In this document: positions 26,514 through 30,453 of the stretch, piece after piece | How positions within the stretch are numbered: the first letter of the stretch is position 1 | How the letters are laid out: each line of letters starts with the position of its first letter | Assembly (NCBI RefSeq): GCF_947497915.1 | Contig: NZ_CANMIJ010000001.1 | Coordinates: forward strand, 925,611 to 989,610 | DNA from: an uncultured Erythrobacter sp. | Lineage (GTDB): Bacteria; Pseudomonadota; Alphaproteobacteria; Sphingomonadales; Sphingomonadaceae | DNA: 64,000 nt | Direction of reading: 5' to 3' | Program-made: the position numbers and the translations under genes | The notes under the pieces: generated by a model | Told to the model about the DNA's origin: nothing | Database searches by the model: none | Seen by the model: the letters and a program-made list of their open reading frames with translations, nothing else

Positions 26514-27209
26514 ATGAAAAAAATTGCACCGCTTTTCGCCCTATCGCTCGCCGCTTTGGCTTCTCCCGTGTTTGCCCAATCCACTGCTGAAGAGGCTGCT
26601 GAAGATGCGATAGAATTGGCAGTTGATGCTGCCCAAAGCGCGGCGCGCCCTGCCGATTGGTCCGCTTCTGTGCAAAGCCCGCGCCCCGTCGATTACATGG
26701 CGCTGGAGCTTAGGCCTGCTGACTATCCCGCTTCCTCATGGGTTGCAGACGAAGAGGGTATGGTTGAATACGAATTGAGCGTGGACGCAGATGGCAAGGT
26801 GAGTGATTGTTCAATCACACAGAGCTCGACTTTCGCTGCTTTGGACGCCAAGACCTGCGAAATCGCGCTATCCCGCGGAGTGTTTCAGCCCGCAACGAAT
26901 GATGACGGTGAGGTGATTGCAGGCGTTTACCGCGATCGGATGATCTGGACTAAGCGCGAGCCCGAATTCGCTGGCACAGCAACAATCCATGTCCGCTATA
27001 ACGTCGCGAAAGACGGGGAAGTCACCGATTGCGACGTTGTGGAATTGAGCGGAGCTATCTCCGATCGCATGCGTCAAACGTTCGAACGTGAACCATGCCC
27101 GGGGATGAATCGACCTGCCCGCGCACTTTACCGAGACGAGAATGGCAACCCTGTGGCGAAAACGATCGAACTGCAGGTGATTGTTAAAGCCGAAACTATT
27201 GAAGAGTAG
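26514..27209 (+). CDS. Signal-peptide protein with TonB C-terminal-like domain(s)
   Basis: MKKIAPLFALSLAALASPVFA|Q signal; DYPA...EEGMVEYELSVDADGKVSDC...SS...LDAKTC...FQPA matches TonB_C; second partial repeat GTATIHVRYNVAKDGEVTDC. Confidence 0.8.
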   Translation: MKKIAPLFALSLAALASPVFAQSTAEEAAEDAIELAVDAAQSAARPADWSASVQSPRPVDYMALELRPADYPASSWVADEEGMVEYELSVDADGKVSDCSITQSSTFAALDAKTCEIALSRGVFQPATNDDGEVIAGVYRDRMIWTKREPEFAGTATIHVRYNVAKDGEVTDCDVVELSGAISDRMRQTFEREPCPGMNRPARALYRDENGNPVAKTIELQVIVKAETIEE

Positions 27210-27285
27210 GGCGGCGAAATCGGTTCACCGCTGTGTATAGCAACGCAGTGGACGTTTGATCCCAATGTCCCTATCTAGGAACACT

Positions 27286-27561
27286 ATGACGCGTAAGCTA
27301 TTCGCCTTCCTGGCCATGCTTTCAGGCCTTGCCGCACTCGGCGGCACGGCAACTGCGTCCTATGCTCACACCACATCTGCATGCAATGCGAGCGTTTCGG
27401 CGAGCGCTGAAAACGTTGGCGTTGATCGGCGCGCCCAATCGAAAGCGACGCCTACCAAGGCGGCGGCTCGTAAAAAGGGCGCAAAGAAAAAGGCACCTAC
27501 GCCTCGTCCGCAATCGCTGCGTATGCCAGTGCTTATGGGTATTGATCGCGCTTACGAATAG
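27286..27561 (+). CDS. Small exported protein upstream of secA; candidate secretion-monitor (arrest peptide) leader
   Basis: AGGA RBS, ATG 27286, Sec signal peptide MTRKLFAFLAMLSGLAALGGTATASYA, Lys/Ala-rich linker, C-terminus PVLMGIDRAYE-stop 117 nt before secA. The monitor function is inferred. Confidence 0.75.
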   Translation: MTRKLFAFLAMLSGLAALGGTATASYAHTTSACNASVSASAENVGVDRRAQSKATPTKAAARKKGAKKKAPTPRPQSLRMPVLMGIDRAYE

Positions 27562-27678
27562 CGTTTGATCCTTTGAATTTTCCGCGCGCCTGATTGGGCT
27601 GCGCCCACGCTCCTTACATCCTCAAATTGCATTGGCCCCCAGCGCGCGGGCCGCATCCATATTAAGGCACCCTGTTCC

Positions 27679-30453
27679 ATGTTTGAATCCCTCATGAAAT
27701 CGGTCTTCGGCTCTTCGAATGATCGTTACATCAAATCGGTCGGAAAAATCGTCAATGAAATCAACGCGCTTGAGCCGCAGGTTCAGGCGCTCACTGATGA
27801 TGAATTGCGCGGTCAAACCGACAAATTCCGCGGTCTTCTGGATGCGGGAAGCTCGCTTGATGACATAATGCCGGAAGCATTTGCGACCATTCGTGAGGCA
27901 TCGGTGCGCGTGTTTGGCATGCGCCACTTCGATGTCCAACTGATTGGCGGCATCGTGCTGCATCGCGGCGAGATCGCCGAAATGCGCACGGGTGAGGGTA
28001 AGACCCTGATGGCGACGCTTGCCGTGTATCTCAACGCGATTGAGGGCAAGGGCGTGCACGTTGTGACCGTCAACGATTACCTCGCTGCGCGCGATGCGGA
28101 ATGGATGGGCCAACTGTATAACTGGATGGGCCTCACCATCGGTATCGTCGTTCCGAATATGGACGAGCTTTCCAAACGCGATGCTTACAATGCCGACATC
28201 ACATACGGCACAAACAACGAATACGGTTTCGATTATCTGCGCGACAATATGAAGCACGAACGCGCCCAGATGGTGCAGCGTCCATTTAACTTTGCGATTG
28301 TTGATGAGGTCGATTCCATCCTGATCGACGAAGCGCGTACCCCATTGATCATTTCCGGCCCGACAGAAGACAAGTCCGACCTTTACGTCGCGCTTGATGA
28401 AGTTGCGAAGGAGATCCCGGAGGATTGGTATGACAAGGATGAAAAAGCCAAAAGCATCCAACTCAACGAAGACGGTCTCGACAAGGTCGAAGCGCTGCTG
28501 ATCGAAAAAGGCCTGCTGGAAACAGAGAACCTTTACGACGTGGAAAACACGCAGGTCGTCCATCACCTCGATCAGGCTCTCAAAGCCGTCCACATGTTCA
28601 AACGCGATGACAGCTACATCGTGAAAGACGACAAAGTCGTTATCATCGACGAGTTTACCGGTCGGATGATGGACGGTCGCCGTTGGTCCAACGGTCTGCA
28701 TCAGGCTGTCGAAGCCAAAGAAGGTGTGAAGATCGAGCCTGAAAACCAGACAATGGCATCGATCACATTCCAGAACTTTTTCCGGATGTATCCGAAACTG
28801 TCCGGCATGACCGGCACAGCCGCCACCGAAGCGGCGGAATTCTGGGACATCTACAGCGTCAATTGCGTTGAGATCCCCACCAACCTTCCCGTCGCGCGGA
28901 TCGATGAAGAAGACGAGTTCTACAAGAACACGATGGATAAGTTCGCTGCTATTGCGAAGGCGATCAAAGAAAAGAACGAGATTGGTCAGCCGGTTCTGGT
29001 TGGTACGGTTTCAATCGAGAAATCCGAACTGCTCAGCCAGTTCCTCGATAAAGAGAATGTGAAGCACGAAGTGTTGAACGCACGCCAGCACGAGCGTGAG
29101 GCGCATATTGTGGCGCAAGCAGGCCGTTTGGGCGCGGTGACCATCGCGACCAACATGGCGGGCCGAGGCACCGATATTCAGCTTGGCGGCAACCTCGATT
29201 TCCGGATTGAAGACGAAACTGGCGGCATGGACGACGGCGCTGAAAAAGACGCTGCAATCGCCAAGATCAAAGAAGTCGTCGCTGAAGAAAAGCAGAAGGT
29301 GCTCGAAGCGGGCGGCCTGTTCGTTCTCGGCACAGAGCGGCATGAAAGCCGCCGCATCGACAATCAGCTGCGCGGCCGTTCTGGCCGTCAGGGTGACCCC
29401 GGTCTTTCGCGGTTCTACCTCTGCCTCGAAGACGATCTGCTGCGCATCTTTGGCCCGGACACGCTGTTTTCCAAAATGATGAATTCCAACCTCGAAGATG
29501 GCGAGGCGATTGGCTCCAAATGGCTTTCAAAAGCCATCGAGACCGCTCAGAAGAAGGTTGAGGCCCGCAACTACGACACGCGTAAGCAAGTCGTGCAATA
29601 CGACGATGTGATGAACGACCAGCGCAAGGTCATTTATGAGCAACGCGGTGAGATCATGGAAGCCGAAACGGTCGATGAGGTCGTGCTGGATATGCGCCAC
29701 GATTCGATCAATTCGATTGTTGCGACCTCGTGCCCTCCCGGCTCCTATCCCGAGCAATGGGATGTTGAAGGGCTGAAGGCCAAAGTTCAGGAAGTCTTTG
29801 GCTTCACGTTGCCATTTGATGAGTGGATCAATGAAGATCAGGTTGAACCGGAAATCTTTGAAGAGCGTCTCCGCGAAAAAACCGATGCGATGATGGAAGA
29901 AAAGGTCGCGAAAAACGATTCCGCGATCTGGCGTCTCGTTGAAAAAGACGTGCTTCTGCGTCAGCTCGACTTTCACTGGAAAGAACACCTCGCGACGCTT
30001 GATGCGCTGCGTCAGGTGATCTGGATGCGCGGCATCGCTCAGAAACAGCCGATCAATGAATACAAGCAGGAAGCGTTCGGCCTGTTCGAGACGATGCTGG
30101 ATAACCTGCGCGAGGAAGTGACCAAGATCCTGTTCAAATCGGAACTGCAGATTGCTCAGCCTGAAACCGAGGCGCTGCCTGATCTGCCAGACTTCCTGAC
30201 CGGGCACATCGATCCTCTGACGGGGCTCGACAACTCCAATGATGGCGATGGTTCGGCTGAACGACCCGAACTGTTCGGATCGCTTGCGGGATCGCCGCGC
30301 GCGGGCTCCGGCCCGGGCGGTGCGAACCCGGATAACCCGTATGCGAACCTGAATGTCAGCCGCAATGCACCATGCCCATGCGGCAGTGGCAATAAGTATA
30401 AGCATTGCCACGGCGCTGCGACTGGCACGGGCGCAAAGCTCAACGCGGAATGA
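27679..30453 (+). CDS. secA: Preprotein translocase ATPase SecA
   Basis: [73 protein letters not shown] and [18 protein letters not shown] motifs. Confidence 0.99.

Follow-up and report, generated by a model that had tools for sequence, protein, structure and literature searches.

A secretion-monitor-like upstream open reading frame and a conserved three-hairpin leader precede secA in the Erythrobacter group

Introduction

Arrest-peptide monitoring substrates are the means by which several bacteria match Sec/YidC capacity to demand. All of the experimentally studied Sec/YidC monitors (SecM, MifM, VemP and uDF_RQH_Enterobacterales) unmask a Shine-Dalgarno (SD) sequence (PMC10987492). In a further set of upstream open reading frames (uORFs) of sec genes, uA_NSP-stop and its relatives, the ribosome stalls with the stop codon in the A site (Fujiwara 2024, PMC10987492), and one of the RAPP/RQH peptides, ApdP, occurs in Alphaproteobacteria (PMC10987492). 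Here we analyse the leader of secA in a 64,000-nucleotide (nt) stretch of DNA from an uncultured Erythrobacter sp. (the window), in which a uORF of 91 amino acids (aa) is followed by a structured spacer and by secA. Judged by sequence, this uORF–leader system lies outside the SecM, RAPP/RQH and described '-stop' families and corresponds to no Rfam family.

An earlier note on this DNA had proposed a SecM-type switch, in which the last uORF codons pair with the secA SD region (helix P1) and close a junction holding two further helices, P2 and P3, so that stalling of a ribosome on DRAYE would disrupt P1 and P2 and expose the ribosome-binding site (RBS). We compared this proposal with the folding and conservation of the leader among related loci. 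The explanation that we consider best as a whole, and to which we give an even chance of being right, is a monitor-like uORF coupled to a three-hairpin leader, with secA expression raised by shielding the leader from a negative factor.

Results

The uORF has the architecture of a secretion monitor

The uORF lies directly upstream of secA and combines a signal peptide, a variable middle region and an invariant C-terminus that ends at the stop codon, an arrangement found in all 56 distinct leaders, so that the earlier view of it as a secretion-monitor-like gene is upheld. Every base and coordinate in the earlier note was also correct, including AUCCAU (27655–27660), AGGCAC (27665–27670) and UGGGC/GCCCA (27595–27607). 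The features of the locus are listed below.

27287–27561, + strand: uORF of 91 aa, from the list of open reading frames (ORFs), with signal peptide MTRKLFAFLAMLSGLAALGGTATASYA and stop codon TAG at 27559–27561
27517–27558, + strand: uORF codons L78–E91 (LRMPVLMGIDRAYE), the invariant C-terminal motif and presumed arrest module, from the homologue alignment
27529–27540, + strand: 5′ strand of P1, codons V82–G85 (GUGCUUAUGGGU), complementary to 27655–27660 and 27665–27670; unsupported as a helix
27544–27570, + strand: hairpin H1 (P2 of the earlier note), GAUC-GCGCU / AGCGU-uu-GAUC, with arms GAUCGCGCU at 27544–27552 and AGCGUUUGAUC at 27560–27570, from folding and covariance-model alignment
27571–27583, + strand: linker 1, pyrimidine-rich and G-poor (family composition C 0.37, T 0.35, G 0.16, C/G 2.4)
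27582–27589, + strand: 5′ strand of P3 (CCGCGCGC), with partner GCGCGCGG at 27642–27649; a window-specific alternative fold that excludes H2 and H3
27584–27604, + strand: hairpin H2, GC-rich, GCGCGCCU/GGGC-u-GCGC, 8 base pairs (bp) with a one-base bulge, from folding and family alignment
27605–27633, + strand: linker 2, pyrimidine-rich and G-poor, including CCUUA at 27612–27616 (family C/G 3.1)
27634–27652, + strand: hairpin H3, GGCCC / GGGCC with a 9-nt loop, CCAGCGCGC, from family alignment
27653–27678, + strand: linker 3 with the secA SD AAGG (27664–27667), 11 nt before the ATG and conserved in relatives
27679–30453, + strand: secA, 924 aa, ATG at 27679, from ORF and translation, with SecA Pfam domains on homologous genes

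The comparison covered 60 loci (numbered L001–L060) collected from one genome scan, one metagenome scan and six look-ups, which together gave the 56 distinct leaders; the window's own clade has eight members. In every distinct leader secA lies on the same strand 105–137 nt downstream of the uORF (117 nt in the window), and the conserved motif ends directly before the stop codon, with uORF length and ends alike across loci. The secA start is placed ten codons ahead of G-S-x-N-D-R in all loci, and the AAGG of the SD is nearly invariant (50 leaders), at an AGG-to-ATG distance of 10–16 nt.

Twenty-four close homologues of the uORF protein, 90–91 aa long and all annotated as 'hypothetical', were found in Erythrobacter, and a profile search extended the family to at least 338 protein clusters, of which the named ones belong to Erythrobacter, Porphyrobacter or Sphingomonadales. 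A signal peptide, judged by inspection, is present in all members and consists of M-T-R-[KRHQ], a hydrophobic core of 15–17 residues and A-x-A. The Ala/Pro/Lys-rich middle is variable, with 40 residues free of constraint, and the last 14 residues are nearly invariant. Residues P81, V82, L83, M84, G85, R88, A89 and E91 do not vary in the alignment of close homologues, and the C-terminus follows the consensus P-V-L-M-G-[IV]-[DE]-R-A-[YFHL]-E, or in its longer form LRxPVLMGI[DE]RA[YF]E-stop; R88-A89 are followed by Y, F, H or L and then by E or K, and proline never occurs there. The features used in the published screen for monitoring substrates are all present, namely a motif abutting the stop, a sec gene downstream, a localisation signal and a spacer of more than 30 aa. 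By analogy, a SecM-like input, an arrest relieved by secretion, is plausible for this uORF. By the same analogy with SecM and RAPP, the segment G85–E91 (27538–27558), which lacks proline, would place Y90 in the P site and E91 or the stop codon in the A site.

The stop codon itself is conserved. It is TAG in 55 of 56 leaders, TAA once and TGA never, against a TAG share of 11–21% among the stops of long ORFs in the same DNA. Within H1, C-U-A from the Ala89 codon (third base) and the Tyr90 codon (first two bases) is the partner of the UAG, and conservation of the stop could be structural or related to RF1.

Searches of the uORF protein against Pfam and NCBIfam returned no family at E ≤ 1, and no Pfam SecM match among them. 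The strings DRAYE, ERAYE and VLMGI are absent from the accessible portions of the text and supplements of PMC10987492; neither the motif nor the uORF and leader family was found in the searchable full-text literature.

Two further observations concern the uORF. Cys33 (codon at 27385), ~6–10 residues past the predicted signal-peptide cleavage site, is invariant, and in the metagenome clades it sits in a conserved A-S-L-A-E-A-L-A-C segment, which is unusual for a purely regulatory spacer peptide. On the minus strand within the uORF, 27443–27495 gave a weak Rfam match to Atu_Ti3 (23.9 bits against a gathering threshold of 50, E 0.014) that is most likely due to chance.

The leader carries three conserved local hairpins

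Single-sequence folds of the leaders recurrently contain three local hairpins, H1, H2 and H3. H1 covers codons D87–E91 and the UAG stop and reaches 9 nt into the spacer, and any ribosome at the uORF end must melt it. It is the P2 helix of the earlier note and the part of that structure that holds, with a pair probability of 0.78–0.98 in the 27500–27700 ensemble, a folding energy better than that of shuffles (−8.7 kcal/mol alone, z-score −2.18, matched by 6 of 200 shuffles) and retention in relatives. Most members have an 11-bp H1 stem, GAACGCGCCUA-CGAA-UAGGCGCGUUU, with the UAG inside the stem, and in L002 the hairpin reaches −17.3 kcal/mol (z −3.83). Its inner helix is paired in 91.9% of cells of the covariance-model (CM) alignment, and codon 87 covaries with the non-coding arm at its synonymous third position (A-U 12, G-C 10). 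In L013 and L042, ~20 nt after the stop (CGUUCGCCCAUC) are complementary to a longer uORF end that includes GAUGGG, which places the 5′ strand of P1 in an extended H1 in these two loci and not with the SD region.

H2 alone folds with −12.4 kcal/mol (z −2.09) and has a probability of 0.86–0.99 in the 201-nt ensemble; in the family its helices are 81–92% paired, with changes on both sides in 10 of 10 pairs. H3 lies just before the SD and takes the form GGCCCG...CGGGCC in the family, where it is 92.5% paired (81.8% in a structure-blind alignment) and has both-side changes in five of six pairs (for example GGCC to CGCC). In the window itself H3 is no better than shuffles (z −0.35) and competes with P3. 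The loops of H2 and H3 vary in sequence and length and the stems are kept. Both hairpins are present in 8 of 8 members of the window's clade, whose sequences differ, and L056, which carries G-to-A in the 5′ arm of H2, has the matching change in the 3′ arm of that hairpin; P3 would have required it in the H3 loop.

A covariance model that carried H1, H2 and H3 only recovered 55 of 56 leaders and gave a single match in the 64-kb window, at 27526–27681. On the CM alignment 85.7% of cells are paired (22–44% with partners slid), covariation is 0.147 against 0.070 for shuffles (0 of 500) and 19 of 26 pairs show both-side changes; on a structure-blind MAFFT alignment the corresponding values are 75.6% (29–49% with partners slid), 0.099 against 0.087 (13 of 500) and 8 of 26. 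RNAalifold on the MAFFT alignment of 50 leaders returned only 10 trivial pairs, because the spacer is misaligned there. Rfam gave no + strand match in this region of the window even at E ≤ 1 and no gathering-level match in six related loci. The overall RNAfold minimum free energy (MFE) of 27500–27700, −58.2 kcal/mol, is not better than that of dinucleotide shuffles (z −0.36). Taken together, the leader structure under selection is very probably H1, H2 and H3 as independent hairpins on C/U-rich, G-poor linkers, followed by an unmasked AAGG.

The uORF codons do not form a conserved helix with the SD region

P1 has no thermodynamic, statistical or comparative support as a helix. Its pair probability is 0.00 in the 27500–27700 ensemble; the duplex energy of −12.4 kcal/mol compares with −8.5 ± 2.3 kcal/mol for dinucleotide shuffles (p 0.064), and a register-free test in the window gave z −1.12 (p 0.14). 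The nested P1/P2/P3 fold drawn earlier amounts to −39.8 kcal/mol against the MFE of −58.2 kcal/mol, and only its P2 component survives, P1 and P3 being lost. In the family, the covariation expected of P1 did not appear: 57.0% of cells are paired, the shuffled mean is 57.0% (302 of 500 shuffles reach the observed value) and a +1 slide gives 57.8%. When the leaders were re-anchored on their own AGG, which removes a one-column misalignment of the window, a pyrimidine faced the valine codon in 37 of 37 leaders with GUG-Val, and only one of the 16 leaders in which GUG is changed to GUC-Val was compensated. The position that faces the Val wobble base is simply a pyrimidine and not a covarying partner. 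A register-free duplex test of codons 81–86 against the 27 nt before the AUG gave a mean z of +0.13, with 0 of 56 leaders at p ≤ 0.05. The mean duplex energy of these codons with the pre-AUG segment is −9.6 kcal/mol, against −8.9 kcal/mol for shuffled partners, and it is low because G-rich codons meet a C/U-rich leader, a composition effect. Another candidate, pairing of GCCU in the Ala-Tyr codons with AGGC, was 90.9% paired in one register and was set aside as uninformative, its four positions being fixed by coding or SD function.

We then asked what an arrested ribosome could reach. The footprint of a bacterial ribosome extends from about −12/−15 to +13/+15 relative to the first P-site base. 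A footprint of this generally accepted size would cover about 27538/27541 to 27570 if the P site held Y90 or E91. The earlier claim that a ribosome stalled on DRAYE covers both P1 and P2 is thus borne out for P2, which is covered whole, and fails for P1, of whose 5′ strand only 0–3 nt are covered. Nothing else in the leader is within reach, so the effects of one ribosome arrested at the uORF end would be limited to removal of H1 and occupancy of the first part of the spacer. In a footprint scan, a 26-nt 'ribosome' was moved over 56 leaders, its P site running from −66 to +12 as counted from the end of the stop codon; this gave an RBS opening energy of 5.2 kcal/mol that changed by no more than ±0.2 kcal/mol up to the stop and was slightly higher beyond; in the window it rose at most positions. 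The modelled footprint thus leaves the cost of opening the RBS unlowered, contrary to the proposal that stalling frees it. Forcing 27530–27575 single-stranded in RNAfold likewise left the SD paired, its G residues having P(unpaired) 0.03–0.04 when masked and 0.06–0.07 when free. In these models, SD unmasking through P1 is not supported.

Other partners for the SD were examined as well. CCUUA (27612–27616), which had been suggested as an alternative anti-SD, is present as described and is idiosyncratic, with a counterpart in L059 only. A scan for a conserved anti-SD 5-mer found none; 29 of 55 leaders lack any upstream 5-mer complementary to the SD, and the other matches are scattered. Single-sequence partition functions place the partner of the SD in the uORF, the spacer or downstream secA, inconsistently among leaders, and are unusable as evidence for any helix. 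Among complements of AAGGY, conservation is highest for GUCUU at secA +24 to +28 (27703–27707, codons V9–F10), with which all five pairs are possible in 57% of leaders. Such a helix would enclose the start codon; its codons are protein-constrained and the predicted helix is weak, and the match may be a coincidence.

P3 and long-range pairing between H2 and H3

The complementarity of P3 is real and appears in the MFE structure of the isolated spacer, whereas in the 201-nt ensemble its probability is 0.00 and in the family it is displaced by H2 and H3. P3 uses the 5′ arm of H2 and the loop and 3′ arm of H3, and therefore excludes both hairpins. The P3-containing fold of 27578–27656 is matched by 38 of 200 shuffles (z −0.67), and within the clade the long-range fold is preferred in two members alone, the window and L060, with two hairpins retained in the other six. 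The H2 arm of the window does fit its own H3 region best (z −4.07 against 49 foreign H3 regions), and the clade of L002–L005 stands out too; family-wide, cognate H2:H3 complementarity showed no gain over non-cognate (mean z −0.07). GC palindromes such as GGCC and GCGCGC would by themselves give H2:H3 pairing. With 18 of 55 leaders predicted to prefer an H2:H3 pairing, a conformational switch between the two-hairpin and H2:H3 folds retains some standing in these models. The most fitting view of P1 and P3 is that they are complementarities of GC-rich sequence that arose by chance or are specific to certain lineages.

Composition, transcription and gene context

The linkers between the hairpins are ~70% pyrimidine, with C/G ratios of 2.4 and 3.1. 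The best 78-nt window of the spacer has a C/G of 2.0, which is the 99.8th percentile of the 64-kb window, and family spacers average 1.56 against a background of 1.03, with 82% of them above the 95th percentile of the background despite the two GC hairpins. With its C>G skew, a kept length of at least 105 nt and a position adjacent to the stop, the spacer resembles a Rho-utilisation (rut)-like leader of the tnaC type, a likeness drawn from composition and spacer length only.

A scan of 27100–27720 found no sigma-70-like promoter and no + strand terminator-like site, and the sequence downstream of H2 and H3 is C-rich and not U-rich, so neither hairpin makes an intrinsic terminator (GC hairpin plus U tract). 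In relatives ~90–95% identical to L003, contigs from RNA runs continue unbroken from the uORF through the spacer into secA. One of these, of 686 nt (L003:1485–2170), begins 16 nt before the uORF ATG and continues into secA; its start may lie near the transcription start site of the uORF–secA transcript. The RNA contigs are compatible with co-transcription, and they give no obvious reason to place the uORF outside the secA transcript. The window's own sequence had matches in marine metagenome DNA runs only and none in RNA runs.

Upstream of the uORF, 26514–27209 encodes a protein of 231 aa that carries a signal peptide, contains a TonB_C domain (E 5e-14) and is located between the divergent argJ and the uORF. 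This intervening gene was seen in the window, L054 and L056, and in L055, L057, L059 and L060 the uORF directly follows the divergent argJ, which implies a promoter within ~100 nt of the uORF in those four loci.

Discussion

The results outline a large and uniform family in which the input side is of the monitor type and the output side is a different conserved leader without an SD-masking helix. In the mechanism that we favour, the nascent uORF peptide, when not under pull from the Sec machinery, would arrest the ribosome at the last codon or the stop. Such a ribosome would melt H1 and sit at the head of the C-rich leader, and secA would be raised by keeping a negative factor off the naked leader and not by unmasking of the SD. 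The negative factor would most likely be Rho, loading on the C>G-skewed linkers as in tnaC–tnaA. Taken on its own, this Rho-blocking, TnaC-like route is possible on grounds of analogy and remains a tentative proposal. That the family is an undescribed monitor of the Erythrobacter group, with an RA[YF]E arrest at a hairpin-embedded UAG and a ~120-nt spacer, blocking Rho or another factor without SD unmasking, seems rather unlikely as a specific formulation.

Several points weigh against this mechanism. The argument for translation arrest is an analogy drawn wholly from architecture. The known monitors unmask an SD, so that the prior favours that route, and in silico folding, for a GC-rich RNA of 200 nt, gives slender grounds for setting it aside. 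The Rho proposal derives from base composition and spacer length only; moreover, two G-rich hairpins break up the C-rich tracts, and a ribosome at the stop covers only the first few bases of linker 1. The covariation of H1–H3 is modest on the structure-blind alignment, the stronger figures coming from the structure-fitted one, and 18 of 55 leaders from several clades, the window included, are predicted to prefer long-range H2:H3 pairing. Finally, the contigs from RNA runs could contain DNA.

The original alternative, in which the secA SD stays buried by P1, as the closing helix of a junction that contains P2 and P3, until both P1 and P2 are opened by a ribosome stalled on DRAYE, has points in its favour. 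The complementarity is present; among ~340 upstream windows of 12 nt, none pairs better with the SD region than the 5′ strand of P1; P1 with H1, H2 and H3 makes a tidy four-way junction of −41.4 kcal/mol; the same codons have the lowest mean duplex energy with the pre-AUG segment in the family (−9.6 kcal/mol); and known Sec monitors operate by such unmasking. We nevertheless regard it as very unlikely, given a probability of 0.00, a full structure 18 kcal/mol above the MFE, p values of 0.064 and 0.14 against shuffles, family pairing at the control level with one of 16 GUC-Val leaders compensated, the loss of P3 even in the nearest relatives, an SD that stays paired when 27530–27575 is masked, and a ribosome that barely reaches P1. 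SecM-type unmasking could instead proceed through lineage-specific, kinetic or downstream pairings, either an H2:H3 switch or an SD hairpin with secA codons 9–10. Besides the prior from known monitors, this is suggested by the 18 of 55 leaders that favour H2:H3, by the fit of the window's own H2 and H3 (z −4.07) and that of L002–L005, by the GUCUU complement possible in 57% of leaders and by several single-sequence ensembles in which the SD pairs downstream. Its probability is nonetheless low: cognate H2:H3 pairing is not better overall (mean z −0.07) and GC palindromes inherently pair with one another, the SD takes part in neither alternative fold, protein sequence dictates the V9–F10 codons and a helix of 5 bp closing a ~35-nt loop has little strength, and the footprint scan gave no RBS opening, these pairings lying beyond the reach of a ribosome at the uORF end.

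Two further explanations dispense with stalling. H2, H3 and the linkers might serve transcript stability or processing, form the 5′ hairpin of a secA-only transcript, provide a 30S standby or S1 platform, or act as a SecA autoregulatory site, with H1 a by-product or pause element. The varying loops on kept stems of H2 and H3 are what structural elements would show, the SD is unmasked, and an A/T-rich patch 5′ of H3 (TATAAT in L057, CATATA in L059, GATATT in L001) could be a −10 box. Set against this, the promoter scan of 27100–27720 found no sigma-70-like site and no break separates the uORF from secA in the RNA contigs; the leader is a constant companion of the uORF, at fixed spacing, and selection has matched the non-coding arm of H1 to the codons of the arrest motif. 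These points make the explanation distinctly unlikely. It is also conceivable that the uORF encodes an ordinary small secreted protein and that the leader has no arrest-based regulation, as the conserved Cys after the signal peptide and the conserved mature N-terminus ASLAEALAC in many members would suggest. An unconstrained middle of 40 residues beside a nearly invariant last 14 residues, stop position and stop identity, a gene that is always directly upstream of secA, and a pattern that fits the screening criteria for monitoring substrates (PMC10987492) render this highly improbable.

If arrest takes place, RA[YF]E-UAG would be a new arrest motif without proline, and the leader a tractable case of signalling by a stalled ribosome over ~100 nt; should the Rho reading also be true, a TnaC-style output would be wired to a SecM-style input. 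If arrest does not take place, the analysis has at least put right a hand-drawn structure that is appealing but lacks support.

Among the known systems, secM–secA of E. coli shares with this locus a small uORF with a signal peptide and a conserved C-terminal segment, directly upstream of secA in the same transcript; G-I-x-R-A here recalls the G-I-R-A-G-P of SecM, and in both a hairpin overlaps the uORF end. There is, however, no sequence homology, and FxxxxWIxxxxGIRAGP is absent here. The motif of the present family ends at the stop, whereas that of SecM ends five codons earlier, with no Pro or Gly at the putative arrest point here; the spacer of ~120 nt carries three hairpins, and in silico the SD is not part of a conserved stem-loop. 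RAPP/RQH peptides such as ApdA and ApdP also occur in the context of protein-localisation genes, but the present uORFs contain no Pro-Pro and no [RQH]-[AG]-P-P or RAPG/RAGP, end in R-A-[YF]-E-stop and lie upstream of secA and not secDF. The '-stop' uORFs (Fujiwara 2024) are similar in their position upstream of secA or secDF, their localisation signal and a conserved motif abutting the stop. They differ in that their motifs are NSP, NAP or DGMK in place of RA[YF]E, they belong to Bacteroidota or Firmicutes whereas this family belongs to Alphaproteobacteria (the Erythrobacter group), and the stop here is nearly always UAG and lies within a hairpin. The leader itself is closest in layout to tnaC–tnaA, where a conserved peptide likewise ends at the stop and is followed by a long untranslated spacer, with C-rich, G-poor RNA beside the stop and no SD-masking structure. 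The tna spacer is ~220 nt long, compared with ~120 nt here. This likeness is one of composition; unlike tnaC–tnaA, the present leader has its C-rich tracts interrupted by GC hairpins, and its expected signal would be Sec pulling force and not a ligand of the free-tryptophan type.

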